This document shows, one piece after another, positions 36,053 through 55,930 of a DNA stretch of 64,000 nt. The first letter of the stretch is position 1. Every line of letters begins with the position of its first letter. Position numbers and translations under genes: made by a program. A model generated the notes under the pieces. That model was not told the DNA's origin and searched no databases. It saw nothing but the letters and a program-made list of their open reading frames with translations. The stretch lies in NCBI RefSeq assembly GCF_056712565.1, contig NZ_CM160072.1; one strand, given 5' to 3'.

Positions 36053-36058
36053 AAACAA

Positions 36059-36074: not shown

Positions 36075-36075
36075 T

Positions 36076-36087
36076 GTGACATGTCAC
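36076..36087. repeat. Perfect 12-bp palindrome GTGACATGTCAC (copy 1 of 3)
   Basis: Exact copies at 36076, 53468, 55919. Confidence 0.5.
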
Positions 36088-36088
36088 G

Positions 36089-36649
36089 CTACATTGATAT
36101 ATGATTCATAAAGTAGCTTAAAGATTTACTTCCCAGAAAAGAAATTTCTTTTCCTGGATATGTCGCAATAATTGAGCATGACTTATCCCCGTTAGAGGTA
36201 ACAAATCCTGAATAACCTACTTGTTCTTTACCATTTTGTTGCTTGGCTAAAAAGTAGAGGTAGCTTATCTTTTTGCCCTCTGGGTAAAACTCTGCCAAAC
36301 CAGTATCGGTGATTGAATATTTTATTCTCCCGCCTTGAGTAACGTTTTCCATCTCAAGTTTAGCTATGTCTTTTCTGTTGTATTCAGCATTGATTTTCCT
36401 TTCGAAATCAATGTTGTTTTCAAATGAGTAGGAAGCAACAGTCTGAATAGATGGGAACACGTTTATCTGGATGCCCCCACAGTCGGCACAGGTATAAAGG
36501 TATGAATCAGATGGAATCCCCATAAAAGAAAACTGAGTTACCTTAAATTTATCGCTATCTCCAAAGTATTGAAGTTCGCATTTAACATTTTGCCCTGCAA
36601 AAGAAAATGCAGACATCAATATTGAAACAAAAAATATAATTGCCTTCAT
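36089..36649 (-). CDS. Secreted Cys-containing protein (186 aa), AT-rich moron at end of virion operon
   Basis: Signal peptide MKAIIFFVSILMSAFSFA; ATG 2 nt after stop of upstream gene. Confidence 0.55.
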   Translation of the reverse strand: MKAIIFFVSILMSAFSFAGQNVKCELQYFGDSDKFKVTQFSFMGIPSDSYLYTCADCGGIQINVFPSIQTVASYSFENNIDFERKINAEYNRKDIAKLEMENVTQGGRIKYSITDTGLAEFYPEGKKISYLYFLAKQQNGKEQVGYSGFVTSNGDKSCSIIATYPGKEISFLGSKSLSYFMNHISM

Positions 36650-36651
36650 TA

Positions 36652-39204
36652 TTATTTACCTAGCATGAACTGCGATGGTGGGATCAGAAAGTCGTTCCCC
36701 TGCTCACGCTCAACACGGCGCTGATAACGCTCAAGAGAGCCTGGGTCAAGGGCATCTTGTATCCGGTTCAATATTAAACCATTCATCGCCGTACGAAGCC
36801 AGAACACGTTGAGGAATGGCGTATTGTCAAGTGCCGTGCGATACCAGTCACCCAAATCTGCATCCCCTCTCGTGGTCTGCTGGAGCAGCGTGATAATGCT
36901 GTCAGCGTTCGATGCTGCTGGCCCCATTAGCGACGTAACCGGCCCGGCCCCCATGCGGTTGACCTCACCAAACATGAAGTCACCCAAGATGCCAAGACCG
37001 CCCCCCTGAGATGCGGCTGCGAGAAACGTCTTGGCATCTGCCGGGCGTGGTGTTTGCCCTTTCAGCATGAGTTTTGACTGCATGGAGATATAACCAAACA
37101 TAGTCGCCCAGACAAAGAGGTTTGCAGCACCAAGGAAAGCCCCCTTCCCGTTACGTAGCAGCGCATTCGTCAGCGATCCGGTTTTCGACTCACCAAGCCC
37201 AGCAGGAATATAACCACGCCCGAATACTTCGCGTCCTAGTACGTTCTGCATGAAGCTTGCAGTGAACGATTTGTACTGACCAGCGAATCGTATTGCTTCC
37301 CCAGCCACCGTTCCTGGCACCGTGCCCATCTTCATAAACGCCTGCGTGCGATCGCCAGGCTCTGACATGGCGATATTCAGACGGTCAAGGATGTAGCCGC
37401 GCAACTGCCCTTCCAATTGATCGCGTGCGTCAGCGATAGCGCGCTGCGTTGGTTTGATCCCCTTACTCTCTACATAACCGGCAATCACTTCGTCAGGCAC
37501 GCCGCGGATGCCGCTGGTCGTCATGAACTTACGACCTTCGCTATCGGCCATGTCCATGTTGCGAAAAATTTCCCACTCACGTTCGCCAATACCGTGCAGA
37601 TCCAGCACGCGTCGCAGGTCTTCCGGTAGCCGCGCATGAGACTGGTCAGCATTCTTTGCAAGCCAGTTGGTTATCATCATGGCGTTGCTGTTGCGACCGC
37701 TCTCGGTCCAGAAGTTCATGAGGTTGTACTTAAAGAAAAGCTGCTGCGCGCGACCAAGCTTTCCATTCAGCGTGTCATCACCAGATATGCGCCGGATGAT
37801 TTCCTGCGTCATGGAGTCGGAATAAACTCCGATAGAGGAAAGGATCTCTTTCTGCTCCGCGCTGTTGTAACGCGTGAAGCGGCCTCTCATAGCACCAAGC
37901 AACGCCTGCATAAAATTCTGCCCTTGGTAGCGCATCTCGGTAGCGGCGATAGGCACGTCGTTAAACGATGAGATTACCGCGCCACCAAGTTGGCTCATAC
38001 GCAACCAGCCGCGTACAGCCGCCGACGCATTGGCCCAGCCTACGCTGCCAGGAATATTTAGCGAGCCGTCAACCTGCGGCATTACGGTACGGTTAATGCG
38101 ACGCACCTTCGTCATGTAGTCAGCCAACGCTGCCGGTCTTCCGGATTTGCTGATATCTTCAGCAATGGCGTCCGTCAGGTACTTAAACATGTTCTGTGGG
38201 TTAGTGCCCAGTACGCGCATCATGCCCGTTGTGCGGGCAGCGCTGTTTAAGCCACCAAACAGCGCTTCTCGCAGGCTGCCGGTGCCGAATTGCTGGTTGT
38301 ACTCGTGCCACGAGATACCATCTTTGAAGTGCAAAATTCGCTCTTGGCTGGCGCGTTTAGCTGCGTTCGCCGATCCCTTAAAGCCATTCATCCAATCGGG
38401 CTTTTCAGATGTAAGATGCACGCCGGAAGCCAGCCCGTTATAAATGTTACGCATGAACTGCTCGCGGTCAGCCACGCCGTCAAAAGTGCGCTCATCAAGG
38501 CGCGGGAGAATAGCATTTCGCCATGCTTCATAACCTGCGGCGCGGATCTTCATGATGTCGTGTGACTGGCGCACTATATAGCCCGGCTCTTTGCGTATCC
38601 ATGCCCCGGCGCGGTTCTCATCAATGCGCGCAGTTTCCTGCCATTTCATGATGATTTGTGCAGCGCTTACGGATTGCTTTGTCATACCGTCAGTTGACTG
38701 CCCGCGCCCTATGCGCCACATTGCATCGGCAATTTCCCGGTCATTGCTGCCGCTGGCGATGAATTGCACCAGCCCGGCACGGTCAAAATCGTAGTTGATA
38801 CCGGAATGATACTTGCCGCGCAGTTGCGCCACCTCCGAAGATACCGACCGGCGGGCGCCGGTACGCGCATCGTTGCGGCCAACCAGCATTGCTTCAAGCC
38901 CGATATCCGGGCGGTCTTTCCAGATAGTACGAAGCTCTCTAAGTCGTTGTGCGGCAATACGGGCGTCGATTGCCTTATTGCGAGCCTCAATCTGTTTTGC
39001 CAGCATATCGGCATTGCTCAGTTCTTCCGCTGCGCGCATCGCGGCCTCTTCCAGAGACAGCGCCTCATTGGTCGCCAGAATTCGCCTAGTGGTGTCGTTC
39101 ATGTCACGCACCAGCGACTCCATCTCATCGGAAGAAAGCTCGCGACCAGCGGCAGCATTTACACTGCGCTCGCACTGCGTCAAAAATTCGTTTGCTGCCA
39201 TCAC
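36652..39204 (-). CDS. Large internal virion / DNA-ejection protein (850 aa)
   Basis: Position between tail-tube-like genes and tailspike; overlapping starts/stops with neighbours. Confidence 0.55.
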   Translation of the reverse strand: MMAANEFLTQCERSVNAAAGRELSSDEMESLVRDMNDTTRRILATNEALSLEEAAMRAAEELSNADMLAKQIEARNKAIDARIAAQRLRELRTIWKDRPDIGLEAMLVGRNDARTGARRSVSSEVAQLRGKYHSGINYDFDRAGLVQFIASGSNDREIADAMWRIGRGQSTDGMTKQSVSAAQIIMKWQETARIDENRAGAWIRKEPGYIVRQSHDIMKIRAAGYEAWRNAILPRLDERTFDGVADREQFMRNIYNGLASGVHLTSEKPDWMNGFKGSANAAKRASQERILHFKDGISWHEYNQQFGTGSLREALFGGLNSAARTTGMMRVLGTNPQNMFKYLTDAIAEDISKSGRPAALADYMTKVRRINRTVMPQVDGSLNIPGSVGWANASAAVRGWLRMSQLGGAVISSFNDVPIAATEMRYQGQNFMQALLGAMRGRFTRYNSAEQKEILSSIGVYSDSMTQEIIRRISGDDTLNGKLGRAQQLFFKYNLMNFWTESGRNSNAMMITNWLAKNADQSHARLPEDLRRVLDLHGIGEREWEIFRNMDMADSEGRKFMTTSGIRGVPDEVIAGYVESKGIKPTQRAIADARDQLEGQLRGYILDRLNIAMSEPGDRTQAFMKMGTVPGTVAGEAIRFAGQYKSFTASFMQNVLGREVFGRGYIPAGLGESKTGSLTNALLRNGKGAFLGAANLFVWATMFGYISMQSKLMLKGQTPRPADAKTFLAAASQGGGLGILGDFMFGEVNRMGAGPVTSLMGPAASNADSIITLLQQTTRGDADLGDWYRTALDNTPFLNVFWLRTAMNGLILNRIQDALDPGSLERYQRRVEREQGNDFLIPPSQFMLGK

Positions 39205-40898
39205 ATCCCCCGGTTAATCATACAGGCGGCAAATGCCCGGAAAGCGTTGCTCATGCTATTGTCGCTGGCGTCGGCACGAATATCATTGAGTTTCTGGCGC
39301 AACGTGGTCGCAAGATCAGGGTTATCGACAGCGATATCGTCAAGCAGGGCGTTACTCAGGTTGAGCTCGTTATCAAGGTCTGCAGCGGCAGCGGTAATTT
39401 CATGATCTGCCTTTTGCGTTTCTTGATAAACCCGATCGGCTGTTTCGCTTGCTGGGCGAGCCGTTTCATCAACCTGCCGTGCCGGGTTCTGTATGCGATG
39501 GATGGCGCGTTCACGCAGTGCTGGTTTGTGCAGTTCATAGAAGGGCTCAACATCTGGGCTACGTCCTTCCATCATGTGTGCCAGCGCAGCGCGATACGCC
39601 TGCTGGTTCACGTTCCAGTCAGCATCCCTGATGGCGCTTGCGGCAGTGCGAACTGCGCCAGCGACCGGCGACATCTGCATGCCGTCCAGGATCTGCTGCG
39701 CACGCTCGGAAATGGTGACTTTCAGGTCGTCGGGGATCTCGCCGCGGGAAATCTGAGACTGGCGCCAGCGCGCCTGCTCTGCTGTCGCGTTCTGCTCCAG
39801 CGATGTGTTGATCTCCTGATTGCGTGCAGCGATGGCGTCTTTCTCGGCCTGAATCTCTTTCAGTGCCCTAGAGCGCGCATCCTTAAACTTCATCCGCTGC
39901 CCCTGATACTTTTTGGTGCGCTGCTGCAGCGTCGCATCAAGCGAGTCAGCATGACGTTGATTAGCCGCAAGCTCGGCACGCAGGTCGGCAACGTTACCGA
40001 TCTGCCCGCTCTGTAACTCCTGCTGGCGCGCCATATAGTCAGGAACCACGTCGTCATAAGCCCGGCTGTATGCGTAGCTCTCCGCTTCACTGGAAATGGC
40101 CGCCGCCAGATCTGCGTTAGCGCCAACCTCAGGGATATTCACGCCCGCCGGAATGTTGTCAGGCGTTATCACCGGGGTTGGCTGCGCATCGCCAGAAAAC
40201 GCCGGGGACTCTCCCGTTGCAGCATCGGGAACGCGACGCGGTCGCACGATATCGGCGATAAGGCCGCCGCCGGCATGCATTAGACCGCCAGCCATCGTGT
40301 TAAAGAAAGTACTTTCCAACGCGTTGCTATAGGTGAAGTCGTCACCTTCCGCCGCCGCTGCCAGCCCGGTAAGCGGCACGGTCACCAACGCCTGCGCTGC
40401 CCCCATGCGTGCACCAGCAACAAATCGCTCGCCAAATCGGCCAAGCACAGAAGCCGCCTTTGCTTCTCCAGCGAACGGAACCAGCGCCAGCGCCACGTTA
40501 CCAGGATCTGCCATTGAACCAGCTAGGCTGGCTGCGAAATTAAGCGGCGTGGCTACCCACCCGCTCGGTGCCGACATCGCGATCTGCTGGCGTGCCAGAG
40601 AATCTTTGCGTTCGGCAATAACATGATCGAGAAAAGCCTGCGTAACGCCAGAATCTGGCACGTTTATGCTCTTTACGCCGTACTGCTTCAGGAGCTCATC
40701 CGCTTCCTGCTTACTGATAACTGTAGAGTTTGGGTCATTCGCCAGCGAGTCGGCCTGCGCAAAGCGGTAGCCGGACATGACCGGCCCCTCTTCAAATCCC
40801 TGCTTAAGGGAAGAAAGCAGCGATTCGCCAAGCCCTGCTGGCGCGTTGCCAATTGGCTGGTTAATTCCCTGTCCCGGATCATCTGTGTAAATTGGCAT
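39201..40898 (-). CDS. Internal virion / ejection protein (565 aa)
   Basis: Ala/Gly-rich with coiled-coil C-terminus; coupled to flanking genes. Confidence 0.55.
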   Translation of the reverse strand: MPIYTDDPGQGINQPIGNAPAGLGESLLSSLKQGFEEGPVMSGYRFAQADSLANDPNSTVISKQEADELLKQYGVKSINVPDSGVTQAFLDHVIAERKDSLARQQIAMSAPSGWVATPLNFAASLAGSMADPGNVALALVPFAGEAKAASVLGRFGERFVAGARMGAAQALVTVPLTGLAAAAEGDDFTYSNALESTFFNTMAGGLMHAGGGLIADIVRPRRVPDAATGESPAFSGDAQPTPVITPDNIPAGVNIPEVGANADLAAAISSEAESYAYSRAYDDVVPDYMARQQELQSGQIGNVADLRAELAANQRHADSLDATLQQRTKKYQGQRMKFKDARSRALKEIQAEKDAIAARNQEINTSLEQNATAEQARWRQSQISRGEIPDDLKVTISERAQQILDGMQMSPVAGAVRTAASAIRDADWNVNQQAYRAALAHMMEGRSPDVEPFYELHKPALRERAIHRIQNPARQVDETARPASETADRVYQETQKADHEITAAAADLDNELNLSNALLDDIAVDNPDLATTLRQKLNDIRADASDNSMSNAFRAFAACMINRGM

Positions 40899-40899
40899 G

Positions 40900-43521
40900 T
40901 TATCGTCCTGATTGCTGGCCGTTCTGGAAAATGTTAATCAGGTTGTCGCGCTGACTTTCTGCGCTGTATTCCTTAGACTGTCCGGGAGTATATTTCACCG
41001 GAGTATCAATGAACTTGGTAATGCTGTTCCATACTGATCGGTTGGTTGTTCCCAGTTTCGCCAGATCGTTGAACGGCACCGTAATCGGGTTGCCGTCGGC
41101 ACCGTTGACGATCAGCCCGTTGAGCATCAGGGTAAGTCCTGTTTCGTCGCTGTTGGTAACCCACTGCGCATTATCACGAATGCGGGAGATACTCTGCTCA
41201 CGGTTGACCTCATCAGGTAGCCTTGGGTCACCAATAAGCGGCATAATCTGATCTGCTGACAGGTTTTTCAGATACGCATTGGCACCATCGTTAACGTCAC
41301 GAATATCTATCCCTGCACGCTTAGGTAGCCGCCAAGTGCCATTGGTCTGGTACTGCTCGCCGAGGATGTCCTGATACGCCTGTTTTGCTGCATCAGACGC
41401 CGACATTCCGCGCTGCATGTTGATGTAAGTAAGTCGTTTTCCCTGCTCGTTGAAGTTATTCCACACGGCAGTGCCACCAGGCTGAACAACCATCGTGCAA
41501 GCAAAATCTTTCGATTGGTCATTCCATGACGAGTCGGCGCTATCCGCGTCGGTTTTCTCAAGACTGCCGCGTAAGTCAGCAGTTTTAACGCTACGGTTTT
41601 GCCAGAGCGCATTTGCCGCGCGCGGGTTCTCGGTAGCCATGACAACCTGCAACGCAGGATAAGCGCTCTTCTGAACCTGCTGCATCACCTGATCCGAGTA
41701 TTTGCCGAACGACTGCGCCACCGACTGAATGGCCTTTACGCTAGATTCCTGCGTGTTGTCAATACGCTGCAGTACGTCGTGGACCATGGACTCCGGTAAA
41801 ACTTTTTTGCTCATTATCCCCAGGCGGTCTTTTTCAGACTGTATGCGGGAAACTAGGTATTCACCAGATGAAGGGTCATTCAGGTACTGCTGGAATGCAG
41901 CCTGCACAACCGGAGAGTTTTGTTGCAGCCATGCCCCCGGATCCGCTTCCCGCGCCTTCAGTACCTGCCCAAGCTTGACCTTTGCCGATGCATAAAGCTC
42001 TGCTTTGTATTTAAAGTCAGGGTCGTTTTCCTGCGGTGCCATTGCCTGCACGGCGGCGGTACCCTGCTGGACGTTGCCCTGCATAATGGTCTGATAAACA
42101 GGTTGTAGCGTCATTGCCTGCTGGTATTGCTGGAAGGTTTTTTCCATCTGCAGGCGCTCGGCAGGCGCTGCCTGAAGCGGCATAACGGCGGCCCATTCGT
42201 GCGCTGAAATAGGCGTCACCTGCTTACCGGCCTCAATTTTGGATAGGTCGTCCTGCATTCGACTCTGTAGCGCAACGCGACCGGCTGAAGCCTGCATGTC
42301 GTACATGCCAGCAACCTTGCTCATCATCTGCGACTTTTTGTCCGGACTCATGGCGTTCCAGAATGGCTGTGCGATGAGGTTTTCCATCGTCGCAGATCCA
42401 GGAATAGCTCCAGCACTGCCAGTTACTTTTGCCACATAATTGCGCGTCTCGTCGTATGGGATAGCTGCGGCAAACTGGGCGTTACTGACTTCGCCTGTGC
42501 GCGGATCGCCAATCTGTTTAATCCAGCCGTCAACCTTTCCTGGGCCAGCGTTATAGGCAGCTACTGCCAGAACCGGGTTATTGTCGTATTTCTTCATCTG
42601 CGCGCCGAAATAAGCTTGCCCCAAGCGGGCATTATAGCGCGGGTCATTCAACCATTTATCTCGGTCCCACGGCACGCCAGCAAGGCGGGCAGCTTCGGGG
42701 CCAGTATCTTCCGTCACCTGCGCTACGCCAACAGCGCCTTTTGGCGACACCAGAGGTGTTCCGTCCTTTCCGTACTGATTTCCGCCACTCTCCTGCCAGA
42801 TTATTGCAGAGAATAACTGCGCCTCACTCGGTGTATCGGTTACCTCAATCTTGCCGTTCGGACCCATCATCTGTTGATACATCGGCACATACCACGCCTC
42901 CGCCGCACCGTTCGCGGCATTCTCGCGCCACGAAACCCAGTTCTGTTCGATCTCTTCCTGACTCTGGCCGTGGGCTTCGCCGTAAGCGATGATGCTATGA
43001 TATGCCTTCAATCCTGCCTGGTTTGCCATTGTCGGGTTACGGAACTGCATCGATAGGTTTTTTAGTGTCGCATCCTGCATATCCGCCTCATACTGGCGAA
43101 CCTGTCCTATTTCGTACCTCCCGGCCTGCGTAGCGAACTGAATACGCTGCTGCTGCGCCTGCTGCATGAAAGCATTACGAGCCTGTTCATCCGGCAGCGA
43201 CATAGCCAGTTGTTCGATCTGAGCATCAAACTGCTGTGTATACTCATGGCCTTTTCCAATAGCATTTTTCCCTTTCAGGTTAAGCAATCCTGTTTCAGGA
43301 TTATTCAGCAGATCGCTGCTTATCTGACTGAGGTTAAGAGATGCCTCCTGAGCCAGAGCGATATTGGCACGCTGTTTTGCCTGCCCCAAAACATCAATTG
43401 CCTCTGTCCCTGCCCGAACAAAAGCATCACCAATACCTGGCTGAGAAAACGTCTGCAAGCCTGCTGACTGAACTCCACGACTCTCAACCTGACGTCCGGA
43501 TACTGTTGGTACGACTGGCAT
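40900..43521 (-). CDS. Internal virion protein with lytic transglycosylase (SLT) domain
   Basis: WQESGGNQ...AYNAGPG motifs; start ATG 43521 with RBS GGAGG overlapping upstream stop. Confidence 0.7.
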   Translation of the reverse strand: MPVVPTVSGRQVESRGVQSAGLQTFSQPGIGDAFVRAGTEAIDVLGQAKQRANIALAQEASLNLSQISSDLLNNPETGLLNLKGKNAIGKGHEYTQQFDAQIEQLAMSLPDEQARNAFMQQAQQQRIQFATQAGRYEIGQVRQYEADMQDATLKNLSMQFRNPTMANQAGLKAYHSIIAYGEAHGQSQEEIEQNWVSWRENAANGAAEAWYVPMYQQMMGPNGKIEVTDTPSEAQLFSAIIWQESGGNQYGKDGTPLVSPKGAVGVAQVTEDTGPEAARLAGVPWDRDKWLNDPRYNARLGQAYFGAQMKKYDNNPVLAVAAYNAGPGKVDGWIKQIGDPRTGEVSNAQFAAAIPYDETRNYVAKVTGSAGAIPGSATMENLIAQPFWNAMSPDKKSQMMSKVAGMYDMQASAGRVALQSRMQDDLSKIEAGKQVTPISAHEWAAVMPLQAAPAERLQMEKTFQQYQQAMTLQPVYQTIMQGNVQQGTAAVQAMAPQENDPDFKYKAELYASAKVKLGQVLKAREADPGAWLQQNSPVVQAAFQQYLNDPSSGEYLVSRIQSEKDRLGIMSKKVLPESMVHDVLQRIDNTQESSVKAIQSVAQSFGKYSDQVMQQVQKSAYPALQVVMATENPRAANALWQNRSVKTADLRGSLEKTDADSADSSWNDQSKDFACTMVVQPGGTAVWNNFNEQGKRLTYINMQRGMSASDAAKQAYQDILGEQYQTNGTWRLPKRAGIDIRDVNDGANAYLKNLSADQIMPLIGDPRLPDEVNREQSISRIRDNAQWVTNSDETGLTLMLNGLIVNGADGNPITVPFNDLAKLGTTNRSVWNSITKFIDTPVKYTPGQSKEYSAESQRDNLINIFQNGQQSGR

Positions 43522-44066
43522 TATAATCCTCCGGGTAATCTGGTTCCTGCTGCTGCCCCGATTGGCGCAGGAGTGCTTTGAGTAAACGGACTCCACGTCC
43601 CACCAAACATCTGGTACGCACCGTATGCCTTCAGAGGCGCAGTGAGCAATGTTGTTGCTGCTCCCACATTCCCCTGTTTACGGGCTGAACTGGCTTCTGC
43701 TTTATAGTTGGCAGCCTGAACCTGATAACCGTAAGCCTCGCGTTGCGCGTTATTCACCGTCGTCAGAGAATCAAGAGCGCCAAACTGGGCAGTGTCGCCA
43801 AATATATCCAGCGCGTTACCTGTAGATAAATCAGCGCCGGTAGCCCCCATTGTCGCCGCCTGTGTACCAAGCCGCTGTCGGGTCTCTCTGCGCCGTTGCT
43901 CAGCTTCAGCGTTACCTCTGTTTATTGCATCATTTGCCTGAGCTGTGGCTATATCTGCGTTCGCTTCTGCAACCTTCGAGGCATACTTTCCCTGTTGGTA
44001 CTGGGTGTATGCCTGAATGCCACTCATGGCGAGCATTGCGCCACCAGCAATAACCGGATCGCACAT
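43521..44066 (-). CDS. Virion structural protein (181 aa)
   Basis: In-operon ORF with coupled start. Confidence 0.5.
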   Translation of the reverse strand: MCDPVIAGGAMLAMSGIQAYTQYQQGKYASKVAEANADIATAQANDAINRGNAEAEQRRRETRQRLGTQAATMGATGADLSTGNALDIFGDTAQFGALDSLTTVNNAQREAYGYQVQAANYKAEASSARKQGNVGAATTLLTAPLKAYGAYQMFGGTWSPFTQSTPAPIGAAAGTRLPGGL

Positions 44067-47606: not shown

Positions 47607-47630
47607 AAGTTTCTATACTCCTGCAATAAA

Positions 47631-47644
47631 GGGGCCGAAGCCCC
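47631..47644 (-). terminator. Intra-operon hairpin / partial terminator
   Basis: GGGGC-cgaa-GCCCC; minus strand followed by TTTATT. Confidence 0.35.
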
Positions 47645-47662
47645 TTGTCTGATTCGCGAGGC

Positions 47663-48007
47663 TTACACGCCCAGTTCTTTACGCTTATCTGCGATCTTCT
47701 CGCGTAGCGTTTCGGCTTTGGCGTTATGGTGTGGCTTCTCGTTAAAGAGCAATTCGTACTCTTCACGGAGCTTATCCAGTTCACCATCATCTGACACATC
47801 GTTGATGATTTTGGTGCTGGTTGCTGCCATTGACACCTTTCCTGCAACTTTTGCTTTTGCCTGTCTGGCTGCATCGTTAACAGGTTCCAGTGCGCTACCA
47901 GGCTCACCTTCGTATTCGATTTCTGCCCCCTCTGGCCACAGAGTGTTATGGATATGAGAGAGGCGCAGAACGCGGTATCTTGGTTTCTCACCTGACATCG
48001 ATATCAC
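47663..48007 (-). CDS. Hypothetical head protein (114 aa)
   Basis: ORF with RBS downstream of decoration-like gene. Confidence 0.45.
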   Translation of the reverse strand: MISMSGEKPRYRVLRLSHIHNTLWPEGAEIEYEGEPGSALEPVNDAARQAKAKVAGKVSMAATSTKIINDVSDDGELDKLREEYELLFNEKPHHNAKAETLREKIADKRKELGV

Positions 48008-48008
48008 C

Positions 48009-48446
48009 TTAACCAGTTACTTTTGAGCGGATCGGGTACGGCGTATTGGCATCAACATCCAGACTGATACCCGCAGTGAATTTGCCAGCCGTTAGTGGGC
48101 CAGTTGCGACGGAGTAGTTAACACGCAGATATCGCTGAACACCGGCTGGCACCTTTGCAGAAACAACTCGCTTACCTGCTGTCAGGGTGGCCTTTGCCAG
48201 TGCGCCACTATCATAAATAGTGGACCATGAGCTGTTATTCTCACTCGTCTGCAACTGGATGTTTACAGTTGCCTCACCACTTGCCGTGGCGGCTTCGTTA
48301 ATCAGCACCCAAAACTCAAGCGGATAACCCACGCCGATATCGCGACGGTTTCCATCAATTGGACCGAGATCGATTACGTCAGTAGAAGCCGCGGTATTCG
48401 TAACCGCCTGAGCTTCGGAGAACATCAACAGTTTGTCGGTGATCAT
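48009..48446 (-). CDS. Capsid decoration-like protein (145 aa)
   Basis: Small beta-rich protein directly after major capsid gene. Confidence 0.45.
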   Translation of the reverse strand: MITDKLLMFSEAQAVTNTAASTDVIDLGPIDGNRRDIGVGYPLEFWVLINEAATASGEATVNIQLQTSENNSSWSTIYDSGALAKATLTAGKRVVSAKVPAGVQRYLRVNYSVATGPLTAGKFTAGISLDVDANTPYPIRSKVTG

Positions 48447-48497
48447 CTTCTTTCTCCATTAGTGGGCCTGTTGCGGCCCACAGGTTAATAACAGGCG

Positions 48498-49490
48498 TTA
48501 CACCACGCGGGCTTCTGTTTCCAGAAGCGCATCAGTTTCACGGATTGGTACACCACGGAATGAAGTCCACCACTCGCCTTCAGTCTCTTTTACGCTGATA
48601 GCCAGAGATGTTTTCTCCAGAGATTGCAGATCAAGAGCCTGGCCTACAGTGCGGTTCATGTAGAACACCGGGCGGCCCATGCCACGGTTTGGAATGCGAT
48701 GCAGTGCCTTAACCATCAACTTGGCAATATTTGCGGCAGAGGATGGTTCTGAAAGATTGCTGACATCGATGTTTGCAATGCGAACAACATAACGCCAGTC
48801 ACGCAGAGCAAGTCCGTTGTCCCATTTGTAATGGGTGCGATAACCTTCGTACTTGCCGCCATTAGCATCTTCCAGTGTCACCTGGCCTTTATCTTCCATC
48901 TGGATGCCAGCCTTCTTCCCTTTCGGGAAGATGCCATGCACGGTGTTTTCGCCCCACACCACTAACCAGATTGAGGTGTTATCTGTACCCGTGCCACCAG
49001 CATCAATGATGTTCTGAGCATTACCCGCAGACAGGCTGGAATAGCGGGAGGACAGTCCCATAAACTGCTGAGGGTTAACGCTGGAATCACCATAAAACAG
49101 CGTCTGCGCCATCTGCTGATTCATCGCTTCAATAAATGCGCGGTCTTCAGACAGGCGGAATTCAGCGGTATTGCCGTTCAGATCAGCCAGTGACTTATCG
49201 ACTTCAGCATAGGTTTCCAGCATGCCAACGGAATCGGTTACCTGCACTGTGGTTGATTTGCTTGGCTGTACGCCATAGTTCAGCAAACGCCAGGTAGCTG
49301 AAGGTAAACCAGAACGAATGGTGGTTCGGTGTCCGGTAGGAAGGTTCCCTTCGACAAAGGGCATATCCTGAAGGATCGGGTTAGTTTGACCGAGAAGCTC
49401 GATAATCTTATCGACTTTCCCGTTTGGATCGACGCGCTTACCCCAGTCAGCCAGCGTTAGCGCAGTTAAGCCTTTAACAGCCATTGTCAT
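48498..49490 (-). CDS. Major capsid protein
   Basis: 330 aa, follows scaffold-like gene; typical size and position. Confidence 0.65.
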   Translation of the reverse strand: MTMAVKGLTALTLADWGKRVDPNGKVDKIIELLGQTNPILQDMPFVEGNLPTGHRTTIRSGLPSATWRLLNYGVQPSKSTTVQVTDSVGMLETYAEVDKSLADLNGNTAEFRLSEDRAFIEAMNQQMAQTLFYGDSSVNPQQFMGLSSRYSSLSAGNAQNIIDAGGTGTDNTSIWLVVWGENTVHGIFPKGKKAGIQMEDKGQVTLEDANGGKYEGYRTHYKWDNGLALRDWRYVVRIANIDVSNLSEPSSAANIAKLMVKALHRIPNRGMGRPVFYMNRTVGQALDLQSLEKTSLAISVKETEGEWWTSFRGVPIRETDALLETEARVV

Positions 49491-49498
49491 TTCCTCTC

Positions 49499-50200
49499 TT
49501 ATTTGCCATAGAGCACTTCGGCCGCACTACGCTGGCCTTCATTACCACCGGTGACCATGCCATCTTCAGACATCGCCTTTCCGATTTTCACGAACGTTTT
49601 GACCAGATCAGGGTGATTACCCAGCCCGGTGGTGTTCAGATATTCTTTGAGTTCAGGTGTCCCGAACTGGTCAAGCGCACGCTGTGCGGCGCTAAGGTTA
49701 GAAATCAACTTGTCGCCACCGATTTCTTTGTCAGCTTTTACATCCGCAGCCCACTGCTCGGTTGTTTTCTGCCAGGCTTCTGCCTGGCGCTGCTGAACAC
49801 CTGCCAGAATCTTCGGATAAGCATCAACCAGCTTTTGCGCTTGCTCGTTGGTCAGGTTAAGTTCTCGCGCCACCGGCTCGAATTCCTTCAACGCTTCTGT
49901 ATCCAGCTCTACGCCTTCGGCAGCCTGAAATTCGTACTTCTCCGGCGCACCCTCTGGTTTATCGCCGTCTTTTTTTTCACCCTGCTTATCGTTTTCAGAT
50001 TTTTTTTCATCATCAGGTTTATCGACATCAGCAACAGGTTGTGGCTTATCACCTTCCTGTTGTGATGGATCACCAACTGGAGCAGGGTTATCACCTGTAG
50101 GCGCTGACGGTTCTGACGCAGCCGGAGCTGCTCCACCATCGACTGGTTGCTCATTGCAAAGACGGCGATACAGCAAACGCTCAAATAAATTCATGATCAC
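49499..50200 (-). CDS. Scaffolding-like protein
   Basis: 233 aa, acidic/Pro-rich N-terminus, helical C-terminus, between portal and capsid. Confidence 0.5.
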   Translation of the reverse strand: MIMNLFERLLYRRLCNEQPVDGGAAPAASEPSAPTGDNPAPVGDPSQQEGDKPQPVADVDKPDDEKKSENDKQGEKKDGDKPEGAPEKYEFQAAEGVELDTEALKEFEPVARELNLTNEQAQKLVDAYPKILAGVQQRQAEAWQKTTEQWAADVKADKEIGGDKLISNLSAAQRALDQFGTPELKEYLNTTGLGNHPDLVKTFVKIGKAMSEDGMVTGGNEGQRSAAEVLYGK

Positions 50201-50493
50201 TCCTGTTCACTGGCCTCTTTGGCCATCTTCAAATACTGTTCAGGGCAATGCGCCATAACGCGCTGAAACAGTTCCAGCGCCAGATTGCGTTGCCCCTCAT
50301 TAAATGCCATTGCCATAGCGTCCATCGGTGAGATAGCGGAAAACACACGGCCTTTCTCCAGCACCGACCAGACAACGCGACGCCCCTGTTCACTGCTCAT
50401 GACAAAGCGAATGTCATCAATTTCACGCTGCGCCATGTCACGTTGCTTACGGGCGTTTTCTTCTTTCAGTTGATCGTCTTCGTAATCTGTCAT
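50197..50493 (-). CDS. Hypothetical head-assembly protein (98 aa)
   Basis: Coupled ORF between portal and scaffold. Confidence 0.45.
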   Translation of the reverse strand: MTDYEDDQLKEENARKQRDMAQREIDDIRFVMSSEQGRRVVWSVLEKGRVFSAISPMDAMAMAFNEGQRNLALELFQRVMAHCPEQYLKMAKEASEQE

Positions 50494-52169
50494 TGTGATT
50501 GCCCACCCTGACCACTAACTGCATTCGCCATAGCTGACAAAACACTCGGATCCGAAGTTTTAGCTTCACTTAGCGTCTTGGCACCCTGTGCCGCCGCCAT
50601 CCCCATCGCCATCATTTGTTGCTGCTGTTGTTGCTGTGCCCGTTGCTGGCGAGCCTGCTCAACCTGTTCCTGCGGAACAATGACGGTTGGAGACACTCCG
50701 GACATATCAGCGAATGCATCGATCGCCTGATCAACGTTGAGTTTGTCGAGAGCTTCTGGTTTCGCTTGCGCAAGTTGACCAATGAAGTTAACCGTGGACG
50801 CCAGACTGGACAGGCCGATAGACTTCTGCGCCTGAGCCATGACGGAAATGTATTCGACCTTCAGGGGCATGCCTTCCATCGCGTCAGGCGGTGGCGGCAG
50901 CATGTTTTTACGCACCATCATCGAGAAAGAGCGATCAATGAGAGGATTAAGACATTCGTCGTTCAGGCGCTCCAGAACCGGCCCCAACATCAGAAGTTTT
51001 TCTTCTTTCATTTCGATCACCGCTTCCACAGGCATCGAGCGGGTATTGATGTTCTGCAACATCATGAACAGATCGACAAAGTAGGCGCTGTTAATGATTT
51101 GACGAGTGTCCTGAATGTCTGCCACCAAATCTGCTGTACTGGGGTTAACCAGATAAGCAGGCCTGAAACCATCCTGACCAGTAATCTGATCGATATACGT
51201 GATGTCGCCAGGAAGAAGGGAGGCACGCTGATTCTTGAGGGAAGTCGGAGCAACCATCGGCGGATTGGTGGCTTTATCAATCAACTGCGACTTGCGCTTC
51301 TGGAGAAGCTGCAATGCCTTAACAGGTCCAAGCGCCAGCATACCCGGGCATGATGATCCATAAACATCTTCGCCGTTAACTTCCCAGCGCGGAGCCATAA
51401 TTGGAAACTCATCGAATCCGGACTCACGCAACAACTTGTCGTTATCGCCACCAACCTCGTAATAAACCGATTTGAATGGCTTGTTCTTGCTATCCAGCTT
51501 CGATGTATCGCGGTCAATGTTCGGGTAAACCGAATGCATCACTTCAATCCACTTCTCGTAGGTGCCGCTTTCCCACATGCTTTTTACGGATTCGCTGACG
51601 TTATTTAGCCCGAACTCCTGAACAAGCTGACGAACAGTCATAGAGAACTTGCGAAAACAGGTGTCCACACTGCCACGAGGTGAGTTAGCCAGGTAGTAAC
51701 TGCCTATCGGGAATGGCATTGTGCGAATGATGTCCTCGTCATCCTCCAGCACTGCCATTGCACCAGTGCTGTATGTGCCGAGGCTTCCGTATAACTGCGG
51801 CAGCGACTGATAGAGATTCGACTTATTGAACATATCGTTCATGCGGTTCTGCACCGCCTCAAGCCACAACTTAACAGGGCCATAATCCATCATTTCAGGA
51901 TCTGGCGTAGCCAGGCGAAACCACGGACGCGCGGGGCTTGTGATGCCTGACATCATGCCGCTGGCGAGAGTGCGCGCCGCCATAGTCCCGGTCGAATCAA
52001 TAATGCGTGTATTGCGTCGATCGTTACGGTTGACCTCAGAAGTCAGAAAGCGGGAACCACGCGGGTTGATGTAATCACTCAACTCGCGCCAGTGCGGCTC
52101 GAACGACTGACGCTCGCTTTCAAGTTGTGCGAACTGTTTGTTCAATCGCTCTTTAGTTGTTTCCGCCAT
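50490..52169 (-). CDS. Portal protein
   Basis: 559 aa, downstream of terminase with moron between; Gln/Ala-rich C-terminus. Confidence 0.7.
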   Translation of the reverse strand: MAETTKERLNKQFAQLESERQSFEPHWRELSDYINPRGSRFLTSEVNRNDRRNTRIIDSTGTMAARTLASGMMSGITSPARPWFRLATPDPEMMDYGPVKLWLEAVQNRMNDMFNKSNLYQSLPQLYGSLGTYSTGAMAVLEDDEDIIRTMPFPIGSYYLANSPRGSVDTCFRKFSMTVRQLVQEFGLNNVSESVKSMWESGTYEKWIEVMHSVYPNIDRDTSKLDSKNKPFKSVYYEVGGDNDKLLRESGFDEFPIMAPRWEVNGEDVYGSSCPGMLALGPVKALQLLQKRKSQLIDKATNPPMVAPTSLKNQRASLLPGDITYIDQITGQDGFRPAYLVNPSTADLVADIQDTRQIINSAYFVDLFMMLQNINTRSMPVEAVIEMKEEKLLMLGPVLERLNDECLNPLIDRSFSMMVRKNMLPPPPDAMEGMPLKVEYISVMAQAQKSIGLSSLASTVNFIGQLAQAKPEALDKLNVDQAIDAFADMSGVSPTVIVPQEQVEQARQQRAQQQQQQQMMAMGMAAAQGAKTLSEAKTSDPSVLSAMANAVSGQGGQSQ

Positions 52170-52183
52170 TTCAATGACTCCGG

Positions 52184-52390
52184 TTACTGACCAAGCAGCG
52201 TTTTACCGCTGGTATTAGCGGTTGATGTGTCGCCCTGAGAACCGGTAAGCAGCGTAGAACTACGACCAGCAGCAGCGCGACGGCGACGTGTTTCTTCGTC
52301 GCGGGCATCAACAACGGCGGCATCCTGCTCCTGTGGTGCTGCCTGAACTTCTGGTGTTGCAGGCACTGATGGTGAGCTACCCATGCACAT
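52184..52390 (-). CDS. Small hypothetical protein (68 aa) upstream of portal
   Basis: ATG 52390 with RBS GGAG; overlapping alternative frame 52171..52410 judged less likely. Confidence 0.3.
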   Translation of the reverse strand: MCMGSSPSVPATPEVQAAPQEQDAAVVDARDEETRRRRAAAGRSSTLLTGSQGDTSTANTSGKTLLGQ

Positions 52391-52458
52391 ATCAATGACT
52401 CCGTACGCAATTAAATTATTACCAATTTAACCACATATGATTTATTTATCGTAGAAGG

Positions 52459-52495
52459 TTGACATTTAACGCGTTAATTATTACCTTTCAGGTAA
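52459..52495. promoter_or_regulatory. TTGACA -35-like hexamer plus operator-like palindrome (52481-52495)
   Basis: TTGACA at 52459-52464; TTACCTTTCAGGTAA at 52481-52495. Confidence 0.4.
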
Positions 52496-52816
52496 CCAAG
52501 AGCTCATTCTGGTTACTAACCTGACTGGCTTGTCGTTAAATTAAACAGGTGGAGTGAGCTTTTATTTTGAGCAGTACGGCGTATGGCACATGCGCCGATA
52601 GCGGTCTGGATACGTTTAAGGGGCACCCTCCCTTGCTCGGGCAAACGAACCAGGTAGCCGGAATGTGCAAGTCGAGCGGTTTTATTCCGCGCACGGGGAT
52701 TCACCATCCCGGCGATTCGGTGTGACGCCTCGGAAGAGACGAGGGTACAACGATGAGAGCATTTATGGAGCCGCGACAAAGTGTGGCGCCTTAACAGGCT
52801 AAGTGCTCTCAGCGTT

Positions 52817-52893
52817 GTGGCATTAGCTCAGTTGGACAGAGCAACCGCCTTCTAAGCGGTTGGTCGCAGGTTCGAATCCTGCATGCCACGCCA
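52817..52893 (+). tRNA. Phage-encoded tRNA-Arg, anticodon UCU
   Basis: Cloverleaf by hand: acceptor GTGGCAT/ATGCCAC, D-arm GCTC/GAGC, anticodon stem ACCGC/GCGGT, loop CTTCTAA, T-arm GCAGG-TTCGAAT-CCTGC, CCA end. Confidence 0.85.
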
Positions 52894-53091
52894 GAATCAC
52901 GCCTAAGGACCGTGATGCCAGAAGTTCCAGGTGCTTGGCGGTGATGGTTTCCCTTGAAGGACTATCACCGCCCTTTTTACAGCAGGACGCCATTGCGATG
53001 ACTTCATGCTGTAAACCAGTACAGCCACGGAAGGCATAACTCATTGCTTCCAGTTCGCCCGGTTCGCCGGGCATTTTTTAAAGGTGAGATT

Positions 53092-53463
53092 ATGAACGAC
53101 CAGCAAATCGAAAAAGAAATCGTTGAGAAAGGCAAAACGGCACCGCGCGTTACGCCAGACCATATCGAAGGCATTATTGCTCAGGAGGCATATTTCACAG
53201 CAGAAGATGGTGCCTTTGGCAAAGCCATAAAAGCGAAACATACTGGCGGAGAGGTAAACTACCAGCCGCACGAATCACTTTCTCTGCTGACGTTCTGCGT
53301 CCTGGTGCTGCGCAACGGCTTCACCGTCACCGGAGAGAGCGCCTGTGCAAGCCCGGAAAACTTTGATGCGGAAATTGGTCGGGAGATTGCCCGGCAGAAT
53401 GCTGTAAACAAAATCTGGATGCTCGAAGGTTACTTGCTGAAGCAGAAGTTAAGCGAGCAATAA
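53092..53463 (+). CDS. Hypothetical protein (123 aa) co-oriented with tRNA; moron
   Basis: ATG 53092 with RBS AAAGGTGAG; plus-strand island in minus-strand operon; family not confidently recognised. Confidence 0.55.
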   Translation: MNDQQIEKEIVEKGKTAPRVTPDHIEGIIAQEAYFTAEDGAFGKAIKAKHTGGEVNYQPHESLSLLTFCVLVLRNGFTVTGESACASPENFDAEIGREIARQNAVNKIWMLEGYLLKQKLSEQ

Positions 53464-53467
53464 CACC

Positions 53468-53479
53468 GTGACATGTCAC
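53468..53479. repeat. Perfect 12-bp palindrome GTGACATGTCAC (copy 2 of 3)
   Basis: Immediately before the bidirectional terminator. Confidence 0.5.
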
Positions 53480-53483
53480 AAAC

Positions 53484-53510
53484 AGCCAGCCGATGAGCTG
53501 GCTTTGTTTT
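53484..53510. terminator. Rho-independent (probably bidirectional) terminator
   Basis: AGCCAGC-cgatga-GCTGGCT then TTGTTTT. Confidence 0.6.
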
Positions 53511-53553
53511 ATCCTCACCAGAGGATATCAGCAGTATTATCCCCACCAGCGGA

Positions 53554-55029
53554 TTAAGCATAAGGGTCATAATCCGTTATGGCCCTTCCCTGCTGGCTTT
53601 GCTGTCCAGGTATATTTATGCGTTTCGAGACCGGGAAAGCAAACGTCAGCAGTAGCGCATCGCCTTTACCCGGCGAACGCCCAAGCCGCTCCTTGATATC
53701 TTCCTTCGGTTCGATAACGATTTTACCGTCCACACGAACTTTGTACTCTGCCGCCGACAGGTCGTCTGCAGTTTCCTGGTCATCCAGCATGCCGCCGAGC
53801 CTCAGCCATGTCTTGCATGAGTTGAACATCTCCCCACGCTTGTTGAGCATCTGCGGGTCAGTAGACGCGCCACCGAACGGAACAAGTTGCCATGTACGTC
53901 CCCAGCCATCACCGATTGACTTCAAACCGGTTCCGTAACCGAAGTCGATGAACACCGCGTCAGCCTGATACTGGTCTTCAAAGTCAGCGATACGCTTCGC
54001 CATAATCAGATCGTCGGTAGTCTTGTTGCCAGTCCACAGCACCTTACTGTGTAGCCCCTGCCGCAGGTATATCACAGCGTCATCAACGCCGGAGTATGCC
54101 GGGTCAACGCCGATTATCACCGGAGCATGTGCAACCTGCGCAGCGGTTACCACCCGTTTCATTGCCTCGTCAGTAAGACCGGTAGGGATAAACTGCAATT
54201 CAGATGCATCAGGGAATATGCCACGCACACGGATTTTAACGAAGTCGCTGTCTTCCCCGTAGTCATCAACCCATTTCTGCAACTGCTGTTTGTTGGTACC
54301 TTCCACCGTCCGACTGTCAATCTGCGCAGTTTTCCAGCGGTGTTTATACTTGCGGAAACATTCACGGAAACGTCCGGTATTACGTGTAGGGTTTCCGAAC
54401 GCCACCCAAATAATCTCAGTGTCTTCGTCCGTAAGCGCACCCTCGGCAACTTCCCACACCAGATCCGCAATGTTCGACGCTTCATCAAACACCACGATGA
54501 TGCGTTTGCGCTCGTTGTGTAGTCCGGCGAATGCCTCGGTGTTGTGCTCAGACCAGGGTATTGCGTCAGCCCGCCACCGCTTGTCGTGCCCTAGGTCATT
54601 GCTGTACATCGCGGTAGCGGTACAGGTAAACCAGTCTTTCGTGATAGCAAGGTTCGACCACTTGATAATTTCCGGCCAGGTCTTCGTTCGTAGCTGGTTG
54701 TCGGTGTTGGCGGTCACCACGACCTTACAATCCTCGCAAGTGGACATGCCCCAGTTGATCAGCATTGAGATGAATGCGGATTTACCAATACCGTGACCAG
54801 AAGCGCGTGCCAGCATAAGCGGCTGATAGCGCGTCTCTGGATTCTGCAGGTGATCACGTATCTCTCGGAACGCATCAGCCTGCCACTGACGTGGGCCGGT
54901 GGCATGTGCCAGTTCAGTCCCCTCTTCCCCCCATGGGAACGCATAGAGGGCATAGCCAAGCGGATCGTGAGTGAACCCTGCAATATCCTCGATTAACTGC
55001 TCTTCAGGAGATAACGCTGTATCTGTCAC
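53554..55029 (-). CDS. Terminase large subunit
   Basis: 491 aa; Walker A-like ASGHGIGKS; C-terminal nuclease-like region; follows small subunit with overlap. Confidence 0.85.
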   Translation of the reverse strand: MTDTALSPEEQLIEDIAGFTHDPLGYALYAFPWGEEGTELAHATGPRQWQADAFREIRDHLQNPETRYQPLMLARASGHGIGKSAFISMLINWGMSTCEDCKVVVTANTDNQLRTKTWPEIIKWSNLAITKDWFTCTATAMYSNDLGHDKRWRADAIPWSEHNTEAFAGLHNERKRIIVVFDEASNIADLVWEVAEGALTDEDTEIIWVAFGNPTRNTGRFRECFRKYKHRWKTAQIDSRTVEGTNKQQLQKWVDDYGEDSDFVKIRVRGIFPDASELQFIPTGLTDEAMKRVVTAAQVAHAPVIIGVDPAYSGVDDAVIYLRQGLHSKVLWTGNKTTDDLIMAKRIADFEDQYQADAVFIDFGYGTGLKSIGDGWGRTWQLVPFGGASTDPQMLNKRGEMFNSCKTWLRLGGMLDDQETADDLSAAEYKVRVDGKIVIEPKEDIKERLGRSPGKGDALLLTFAFPVSKRINIPGQQSQQGRAITDYDPYA

Positions 55030-55622
55030 TGATTGCCATCCTGACGTTCTTTCAGTCTCTTCCTGGCTGCCGCTATGCGATCAGCAATTGTCACATTCAC
55101 ATTAACATCCAGGCGTTCTTTGAATGCGTTGACGTCGACGTGCTTACCAATCAGTTCGAGGTTCTTCACCTTGTCAGGCCATTTAATTTTTTTGAGGATT
55201 GTCTCTATCGAATCCTCGTTCATGTTCATGATGGTCGATGACAGATCAAAGCCACTAAGCGTAGTGCGCCAGATTTTCGGCCACTCGCGGATTGGCTTAA
55301 GGCTCCCATCGTCGTTGAGGATGTCGATCACGTCCATCTGGTCGATCTCCACCAGGCGCATGAGAACGTAATCAGCACTGACGCGCATTCGTTTGTTGCG
55401 CTCCTCCATCAACTCGGCAATCCGTTTTTGAATGCGTTCATCGCGCATCATGACACTGGCTTTAACTGCCGCTGTATTTGGGGAGAATCCTGCGTTAATC
55501 GCTGCCTGAGTCTGGTTTTCAGGCGTTTTGATGTATGACTGGCAATAAGCCTCCTGCATTGCTGTTAGTGGCTTAAATTGCGTTGATTTGCGTTTATAGG
55601 TTTTAGGTTCAGCAGGCATCAT
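55026..55622 (-). CDS. Terminase small subunit
   Basis: ATG 55622/55619 preferred; track start 55700 is a TTG extension over a terminator and operator. Confidence 0.55.
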   Translation of the reverse strand: MMPAEPKTYKRKSTQFKPLTAMQEAYCQSYIKTPENQTQAAINAGFSPNTAAVKASVMMRDERIQKRIAELMEERNKRMRVSADYVLMRLVEIDQMDVIDILNDDGSLKPIREWPKIWRTTLSGFDLSSTIMNMNEDSIETILKKIKWPDKVKNLELIGKHVDVNAFKERLDVNVNVTIADRIAAARKRLKERQDGNQ

Positions 55623-55639
55623 AACCACCGTGGTAATAG

Positions 55640-55654
55640 TTACCGTTGTGGTAA
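55640..55654. promoter_or_regulatory. Operator-like palindrome TTACC-N5-GGTAA upstream of packaging operon
   Basis: TTACCGTTGTGGTAA, 18 bp upstream of small-terminase ATG. Confidence 0.45.
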
Positions 55655-55663
55655 TAGTACCAT

Positions 55664-55691
55664 GCAAAATAAAGCCGCCATAGTTGGCGGC
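55664..55691 (-). terminator. Terminator separating early/middle operon from packaging operon
   Basis: Minus strand GCCGCCA-acta-TGGCGGC then TTTATTTTG. Confidence 0.5.
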
Positions 55692-55696
55692 AGTAT

Positions 55697-55909
55697 TCAA
55701 AGTCCATCAAATTCATCGTAAAAACTCTCGTCAAGATACCCTTCCCATTTACCGCGAATGAAAATTACATCCTCGCCGCAAGGGTGCTGACTGTCGATAA
55801 CTATATCCCTCCTGGCGCAACCATACTTATGCATGAGAAATTTAACCTCTTTCGGAAAATTTGCTGAGTTATCTCTCATATCTTCAAGGTCGTAGCGTAT
55901 TTTTGGCAT
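55697..55909 (-). CDS. Hypothetical protein (70 aa)
   Basis: ATG 55909 with RBS AAGGTG; track start 55930 is a GTG inside the palindrome. Confidence 0.35.
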   Translation of the reverse strand: MPKIRYDLEDMRDNSANFPKEVKFLMHKYGCARRDIVIDSQHPCGEDVIFIRGKWEGYLDESFYDEFDGL

Positions 55910-55918
55910 AACACCTTC

Positions 55919-55930
55919 GTGACATGTCAC
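55919..55930. repeat. Perfect 12-bp palindrome GTGACATGTCAC (copy 3 of 3)
   Basis: Overlaps stop codon of gene 55927..56265. Confidence 0.5.

Follow-up and report, generated by a model that had tools for sequence, protein, structure and literature searches.

We examined a 12-bp palindrome, GTGACATGTCAC, in a 64,000-nucleotide stretch of contig NZ_CM160072.1 (NCBI RefSeq assembly GCF_056712565.1; the whole stretch is called the window), which holds an epsilon15/phiV10-like (Uetakevirus) prophage whose forward direction is the minus strand. Our results point to the palindrome as the recognition box of the prophage's own 112-amino-acid (aa) protein, which would control RNA polymerase at the boundaries between transcription units, a composite reading to which we give a probability of roughly 55%. 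The element itself is real, strongly non-random, and evolutionarily conserved, and it is best read, from sequence comparison, as fitting the known phage pattern of a regulator paired with a palindromic site. It is unusual in its placement at stop codon and terminator junctions, its portability across phage types, and its half-sites, which are identical to those of the host chromosomal site matS.

A search of the whole window recovered three exact copies, at 55919-55930 (box A), 53468-53479 (box B), and 36076-36087 (box C), the same positions that a sequence-only reading of this DNA had reported, and no others; none of 100 dinucleotide-preserving shuffles of the window contained any copy. Allowing up to two mismatches added a single match, at 50430 in a coding region, a count within chance. 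The sequence-only reading had also placed two of the copies beside terminator hairpins, at the ends of the virion operon and of a tRNA-bearing moron, with the third overlapping a stop codon and two of the three bracketing the terminase genes. We found the same contexts: the stop codon is the TGA at 55929-55927 (minus strand) of the regulator gene, which falls inside box A, and terS-terL lie between boxes A and B. Along the minus strand, the end of the early-right, nin-like operon is followed by the regulator gene, box A, a 70-aa open reading frame (ORF), a terminator (55691..55674), a TTACC-N5-GGTAA operator at 55640, terS, terL, and box B with its terminator, which are shared with a reverse unit (a tRNA-Arg and an Sf6-gp66-like gene); the genes from portal through virion then lead to a 186-aa last ORF and to box C with its terminator. 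The features are as follows.

55927..56265, minus strand: regulator gene, 112 aa, epsilon15 gp49/phiV10 p55/N15 gp46 family, PHROG 536; proposed box-binding protein
55919..55930, no strand: box A, GTGACATGTCAC, overlapping the regulator TGA stop; the minus strand reads G-TGA-CATGTCAC, and the 3' flank (minus strand) is GAAGGTGTT, then the ATG of the 70-aa ORF, with a Shine-Dalgarno (SD) sequence before the ATG
55697..55909, minus strand: 70-aa ORF, PHROG 1541, directly 3' of box A
55667..55691, minus strand: intrinsic terminator, GCCGCCAACTATGGCGGC then TTTATTTT, between box A and terS
53484..53510, plus strand: intrinsic terminator of the tRNA-Arg/moron unit, AGCCAGCCGATGAGCTGGCT then TTGTTTT; scanned as a terminator on the plus strand only
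53468..53479, no strand: box B, GTGACATGTCAC, 4 nt past the moron gene stop and 4 nt before the terminator at 53484-53503
53092..53463, plus strand: cargo gene, reverse-oriented, Sf6 gp66/"Gp49 family", PHROG 322; its stop precedes box B
52817-52893: tRNA-Arg(tct), which with the cargo gene at 53092..53463 makes up the moron unit
36089..36649, minus strand: last virion-operon ORF, 186 aa, PHROG 11983, cargo-like, standing in for the 46-aa phiV10 p21
36076..36087, no strand: box C, GTGACATGTCAC, 1 nt past the stop of the last virion-operon ORF and abutting the terminator hairpin
36051..36075, minus strand: intrinsic terminator of the virion operon, AGGCCGCTTTCGCGGCCT (stem 36075..36058) then TGTTTTT; scanned as a terminator on the minus strand only

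Across the Uetakeviruses, a recurring grammar runs along the unit that ends: a stop codon (0-8 nt off or overlapping), the box, 0-4 nt, a hairpin, and a U-tract. The association of the boxes with operon ends and terminators is correct for the genus; the link to the adjacent regulator gene and the half-site identity with matS are additions made here. The terminators at boxes B and C are recognized on one strand only by our scan, and the box stands on the side that lacks the U-tract.

Searching related prophages for the 12-mer, as had been proposed, showed that it is kept at syntenic positions in diverged relatives. Specifically, the same three boxes occur in phiV10, Salmonella epsilon15, SPN1S, and Enterobacter Tyrion, all exact except box A of phiV10 (GTGACATGTTAC), which has one mismatch and spans the record junction, and the flanks have diverged, with structural-gene DNA in those relatives about 75-81% identical to the window. 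The gp18 stop codon of epsilon15 lies inside box C, and the hairpin between box A and terS has homologues in the same four phages. Among 80 closely related IMG/VR loci, whose regulators are 97-100% identical, box A is kept in 79, the exception (L038) being cut at a contig end, and box B is kept in most. Box B separates conserved terL and terminator DNA on one side from variable cargo on the other; at least six unrelated cargo genes occupy the variable side, and the stop codon of every one lies exactly 4 nt from the box, so that box B is a fixed point at a mosaic junction. The 70-aa ORF next to box A is intact in the window and about 25 relatives and survives as a 3' remnant in phiV10-type phages; its presence varies between otherwise near-identical relatives, and the indel begins exactly at box A. 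In the Salmonella phages, a degenerate fourth box overlaps the TGA stop of Rz, the spanin gene that closes the lysis operon (GTGACATGGCAT in epsilon15, locus L002, 26618; GTGACATGTCAT in SPN1S, locus L084, 26722), and its left half has been lost in phiV10 and in the window.

Two box-like sequences were observed elsewhere in the window. The near-copy at 50430-50441, GTGACATGGCGC, lies within a small gene 3' of the portal gene; its counterpart in phiV10 (L001, 5306) and about 40 relatives is GTGACATGGCAC, the same sequence as the upstream box of a pair found in P2-like prophages (below), and it was not found in the Salmonella relatives. This near-copy may be a coincidence of the coding sequence, or it may act as a weak fourth site. 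The second, GTGACAACTTGTCAC at 57751-57765, has the box half-sites around a 5-bp center within a minus-strand ORF of the nin-like region and, as a single copy, is probably due to chance.

The evidence that ties the box to one protein comes from far outside the genus. Distant homologues of the regulator (30-67% identity) were found in N15, ZF40, P2-like, Mu-like, lambdoid, and Vibrio phages, all with GTGAC-NN-GTCAC boxes, and in an Aeromonas phage with a variant box; gene and box co-occur in more than 10 lineages. In most of these, one box coincides with the 3' end of the gene itself, falls inside it, or is no more than about 20 nt away, and in four lineages the box provides the regulator gene's TGA stop. 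N15, whose gp46 is 35% identical to the window protein, has three exact GTGACTGGTCAC boxes against 0.04 expected, at 28550, 33237, and 39269 with cos at 1; one is on the gp46 stop codon, one follows gene 33, and one is inside repA, and the N15-like Kpn74 has the same box sites. Pectobacterium ZF40, whose homologue is gp22 (67% identity), has three exact copies of GTGACATGTCAC (5125, 7622, and 14944, with terL at 23938), one located 2 nt past the gp22 stop and the others inside gp08 and the cII-like gp12, flanking the immunity region. In P2-like prophages, the homologue (38% identity) follows gpA, and 36 of 38 loci have at least one box with at most one mismatch; in the majority, GTGACATGGCAC and GTGACATGTCAC form a pair spaced 33 bp apart, with a cos-like region on one side and the 3' end of the portal gene on the other, and inserted cargo makes the distance from the pair to the regulator variable. 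Mu-like prophages carry the box inside the 3' end of the regulator ORF, where it encodes VTGH, and two lambdoid lineages carry it on or adjoining the regulator stop. Of the three boxes in Vibrio K303, one precedes terS by 20 nt; the Aeromonas phage has two copies of the variant GTGACCGGACAC, each directly before an SD sequence and ATG, one of the two genes being the regulator. By comparative reading, the gene and one box copy form a portable module that is inherited together, with further boxes scattered in the genome.

The spacing of the half-sites is equally strict. In 445 kb of homologue-bearing phage DNA, GTGAC-Nx-GTCAC with x from 0 to 6 occurred 0, 0, 31, 1, 0, 1, and 0 times, against 0.42 expected for each, and the other 59 half-site permutations averaged 0.54 at N2; the generalized box is therefore GTGAC-NN-GTCAC, with a lineage-specific center (AT, TG, GC, AG, or AC). 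Several features argue that the box is the cognate DNA site of the regulator family. The dyad and the spacing are strict, and the half-sites are invariant without compensatory variation. Moreover, boxes occur inside ORFs and are linked to a single DNA-binding protein gene, even to the point of sharing its stop codon. We regard this predicted pairing as very probable. A comparison by eye of the central dinucleotides with the residues of the predicted beta-strand gave no clear rule.

The protein itself belongs to a family of about 154 clusters at 50% identity to which no Pfam or NCBIfam family could be assigned; its sole match was PHROG 536, "transcriptional regulator", and AFDB50 returned only uncharacterized relatives named "phage protein" or "gp46". 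We found no publication that mentions the 12-mer or characterizes the family, and nothing relevant came up in literature searches for the late promoters of epsilon15, for N15 gp46, or for "matS-like" sites in phages. An alignment of 57 diverse members shows a conserved basic N-terminal helix (ERKxxQRxR), a PY..EY..LLI motif, a long helix, and a Cys-rich motif. The structural model combines a ribbon-helix-helix (RHH)-like beta-alpha-alpha fold, dimerizing through the beta-ribbon as in CopG, Arc, and MetJ, with a C-terminal Cys-rich zinc finger, into which the second RHH helix runs on. Given such a fold, the protein would act as a dimer reading a palindrome. Profile matches to RHH families are weak (Pfam RHH_1 and RHH_5 each match 1 of the 57 members, at E 0.03-0.07), and the match to the NCBIfam RHH protein YbfE (E 0.0025-0.07) falls below that family's cut-off. 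The zinc finger weakly resembles, as modelled, that of TraR/DksA, a family that makes contact with RNA polymerase: hhalign placed residues 47-107 on residues 6-66 of F-plasmid TraR, nearly its whole length, with a probability of 73.6% (E 2.9e-5), while a PDB profile search gave weak hits to TraR (E 0.025) and YbiI (E 0.04), a single member weakly matched NCBIfam DksA/TraR (E 0.096), and none of the 57 matched DksA/TraR in Pfam. The cysteine spacing also differs, CxxC-x8-CxC-x5-C in the regulator versus CxxC-x17-CxxC in the C4 finger of DksA/TraR.

One role that would fit the three window sites alike, and the probable one, is the control of RNA polymerase passage at unit boundaries. After induction, the gene at the end of the early-right operon would supply the protein, which would occupy the boxes and could then control the crossing of unit boundaries by RNA polymerase. 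The box would seal the U-tract-less side of a one-directional hairpin terminator and would provide feedback to the operon that encodes the protein. RHH proteins usually act as repressors, the box geometry in the Aeromonas and Vibrio phages is operator-like, and read-through at box B would be harmful; for these reasons, we tentatively favor a barrier or insulator mode of action with feedback. At the Aeromonas boxes and at one K303 site, a promoter-like -10 lies 14-16 nt upstream of the box and an SD sequence and ATG follow closely, a layout that resembles an autorepressor operator. The P22 Arc and Mnt and the CopG and MetJ repressors are likewise small beta-alpha-alpha proteins whose dimers read short palindromes, as predicted for the regulator, which differs from them in its extra conserved basic N-terminal helix and C-terminal zinc finger and in having boxes mostly at the 3' ends of units or in ORFs rather than at promoters, one of them on its own stop codon. 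A second parallel is offered by the stoperators of Cluster A mycobacteriophages, in which one short protein-binding site is likewise present in multiple copies in the transcribed and inter-operon DNA of a temperate phage, and which are thought to halt elongating RNA polymerase. Stoperators, however, are asymmetric, oriented with transcription, found in about 20-30 copies per genome, and recognized by the immunity repressor, a helix-turn-helix protein, whereas the boxes described herein are palindromic, number about three per genome, and are paired with a separate RHH/zinc-finger protein.

Several observations weigh against this reading. The positions of the boxes differ between lineages, such that no single transcriptional geometry fits all of them: some mark unit ends, and others fall within ORFs (N15 repA and ZF40 gp12 and gp08), precede late-promoter-like elements, or lie near the cos-like region of P2-like prophages. 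A tight roadblock at a box that contains a stop codon would truncate the mRNA of the upstream gene itself, and the location of the lambdoid gene, at the place of Q and upstream of a strong promoter and tandem terminators, suggests read-through instead. Further, box B is apparently missing from about one-fifth of the close relatives (by raw positions, some of the loci being too short to judge) and is therefore dispensable, and in three relatives that we inspected its place is held by different DNA.

The lambdoid arrangement leads to a Q-like late control, in which the protein would either pass from the box to RNA polymerase or activate a promoter close by, so that the terminators past the boxes are read through and expression extends out of the early operon into terS and beyond the virion operon. 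We consider this a serious though rather unlikely rival. The regulator is the final gene before the late and packaging genes in Uetakeviruses and holds the Q position in the lambdoid loci, where the box or boxes (L129, L132, and L124) precede a near-consensus promoter (TTGACG-17-TATCGT or TATACC), two nearly identical tandem terminators, and the lysis and terminase genes. In L129 (615-940) and L124 (13040-13194), this layout is PR'/tR'-like with no recognizable Q gene upstream, and the upstream genes called in L123 and L124 include no member of a Pfam Q family. The epsilon15 box overlaps a promoter-like GTGACA-17-TAAATT just 5' of the terminator, the zinc finger and the modelled TraR-like similarity suggest contact with RNA polymerase, and at sites B and C about 35 nt separate the box center from the termination point downstream of it, a spacing close to that of the Q-binding element and the paused polymerase in lambda. 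Together with zinc binding, an early operon end followed immediately by a DNA element, and terminators placed before late genes, these arrangements recall the lambdoid system of Q, its binding element, PR', and tR'. Yet the regulator has no homology to any Q family, be it of the lambda, 21, or 82 type (no match to Q proteins in Pfam, NCBIfam, or PDB sequences), there are several boxes per genome, some at operon ends, and N15 and Kpn74 carry the gene beside a bona fide Q-type late activator, gp40. The Q-binding element lies within the late promoter, whereas overlap of the box with a promoter-like -35 is confined to epsilon15-type phages; in the lambdoids the box is outside the promoter, at a distance that varies from 41 to 70 nt upstream of the -35. 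At box B, read-through would drive moron transcripts antisense into terL.

Nor would read-through be needed, because each late unit has its own promoter region bearing a TTACC-N5-GGTAA operator. As the sequence-only reading held, these operators are a family distinct from the palindrome, with 10 separate exact sites in the window (33666, 34046, 35086, 52481, 55640, 58557, 58619, 60950, 61662, and 61724) and none in the shuffles; the site at 55640 lies between the terminator and terS, and another is in the divergent region between portal and tRNA. Because the epsilon15 record labels the equivalent sites as repressor-binding sites, the "late" units appear to be directly repressor-controlled.

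Rather unlikely as well, in our judgment, is that the gp49/gp46 family is a DNA-tethered TraR-like factor or a phage-private analogue of MatP/matS with a site 1 bp shorter. In the tethered version, the RHH dimer may park a polymerase-binding zinc-finger module on boxes beside terminators and gene junctions. The likeness to TraR/DksA proteins (F TraR, lambda Orf73, and YbiI) lies in the alignment over almost the whole of TraR and in the location of the gene in a nin-like, late-early region of temperate phages; the regulator differs in that, as modelled, it lacks a free N-terminal helix for the secondary channel, the helix being embedded in the RHH, and TraR has no DNA site. If the tethered version were true, it would be a site-specific control of termination or read-through unrelated to N, Q, or Rho-directed factors, and if the MatP/matS version were true, phage DNA would be organized, or host MukBEF and Ter functions subverted, by such an analogue.

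Distinctly less probable is a purely architectural role of the MatP/matS kind, in which the boxes would be bridged or condensed, or host MatP, MukBEF, or Ter would be interfered with, and transcription would not be the primary target. The closest known DNA motif to the box is indeed matS, a 13-bp palindrome, GTGACRNYGTCAC (PMC6907758, PMC3603311), with the same half-sites. About three boxes per genome, some of them within ORFs, would be typical of architectural sites, and phages with homologues infect Vibrio, Aeromonas, and Enterobacterales, the clade that has MatP and MukBEF, a pattern that may reflect database sampling; a few AFDB relatives do lie outside the clade. Canonical matS was absent from 500 Escherichia and Salmonella prophages (Bobay et al.), and a site 1 bp shorter would be a private one. 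Against this, the matS center is N3 (RNY), whereas the phage box is strictly 12 bp with N2 (31 N2 versus 1 N3 in the 445 kb), and no copy of GTGAC-N3-GTCAC occurs in the window. MatP consists of a four-helix bundle, an RHH, and a coiled coil; the regulator model has neither the bundle nor the C-terminal coiled coil, hhalign of MatP against the family gave a probability of 0.9%, and no member matches the MatP Pfam families (PF06303 and PF17414). A search for more diverse MatP sequences gave only near-identical ones from E. coli. Finally, the protein is phage-encoded, and the Uetakevirus sites are placed at stop codon and terminator junctions with a precision far beyond what an architectural role would call for. 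A separate observation is that Vibrio K303 (L136) has, at 19491 and beside its three N2 boxes, a 13-bp palindrome, GTGACACCGTCAC, that fits the matS consensus GTGAC-RNY-GTCAC.

A packaging or recombination signal, whether a pac- or cos-accessory site or a hot spot or scar of module exchange, is very improbable. Of the roles put forward in the sequence-only reading, a second regulator site is the one favored by the conserved synteny and the co-occurrence with one phage protein family; packaging or partition, as a general role, and RNA processing are not supported. Boxes A and B do bracket terS-terL, one K303 box is close to terS, the P2-like pair lies about 230 bp from the cos-like G+C-rich stretch, and box B coincides exactly with a mosaic junction with its alternative cargo genes. 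The boxes of N15 and ZF40, however, are far from cos and from the terminase genes, box C is 17 kb from the terminase genes, and the same 10 specified bases occur in phages without flank homology, so they are not scars; the tight linkage to one DNA-binding protein gene would also be left unexplained. As for partition, N15 has its own SopAB system.

Least probable of all is an RNA-level element, in which a GUGA-CAUG-UCAC hairpin would serve as a signal for processing, stability, or translation. In its favor, the boxes at unit ends are transcribed, and several lie 9-20 nt 5' of a start codon beside an SD sequence (N15 gene 47, Kpn74, Aeromonas, K303, and box A of the window). Against it, the predicted stem is only 4 bp and inconsistent in minimum-free-energy structures, even very distant phages share unchanged half-sites without compensatory substitutions, pairing is disrupted in the Aeromonas variant GTGACCGGACAC, boxes occur inside ORFs, and the strict N2 spacing and perfect dyad are those expected of a dimeric DNA-binding protein.

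Other candidates were set aside. A nut-like site or RNA hairpin was rejected for its weak, inconsistent structure and lack of covariation, and the Rfam scan detected no family at any box, only tRNA, isrK, and C4. CRP was rejected because the spacing does not fit, in agreement with the sequence-only reading, and we know of no other host regulator that matches the 12-mer. The GTGACA of the box resembles the -35 hexamer TTGACA, with GTGACA-17-TAAATT at epsilon15 box A and GTGACA-18-TATGAT at box C of the window (plus strand); we take this resemblance as incidental because the -10 partners are not conserved between relatives.

The predicted recognition box gives a concrete DNA target to an uncharacterized family labelled "phage protein", "gp46", or "transcriptional regulator", one that occurs in the model phages epsilon15, phiV10, N15, and ZF40 and in hundreds of Escherichia coli genomes. 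Since the module spans podovirus, myovirus, siphovirus, Mu-like, and linear-plasmid phages, it would be a general portable control device. A putative protein-binding site beside intrinsic terminators is unusual, and its role in unit-boundary control or in the insulation of morons is directly testable. Given that prophages avoid canonical matS, a phage-private version 1 bp shorter is of note, and one may ask whether the site that organizes the host Ter region has been remade by these phages for their own use.

The surrounding prophage holds further features of note. Rfam placed isrK at 34097-34173 and a C4 antisense RNA at 34192-34278 (plus strand), the two lying just upstream of, and overlapping, an Ant-like anti-repressor ORF at 34174-35019 (plus strand); this locus, in a reverse unit converging on box C, resembles the C4-ant immunity modules of the P1/P7 type. 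Among 5,426 complete E. coli genomes, the best match to window positions 52000-57000 is 96.9% identical, so the exact prophage variant is absent from that set, and segments related to this region occur in 2,613 E. coli genomes. The tailspike region (about 30471-32863, minus strand) shares 99.5% identity with the K1-specific endosialidase tailspike found in the P22-like phage CUS-3 and in phiv205-1, which argues that a K1 capsule-targeting tailspike module has been swapped into this epsilon15-like prophage.

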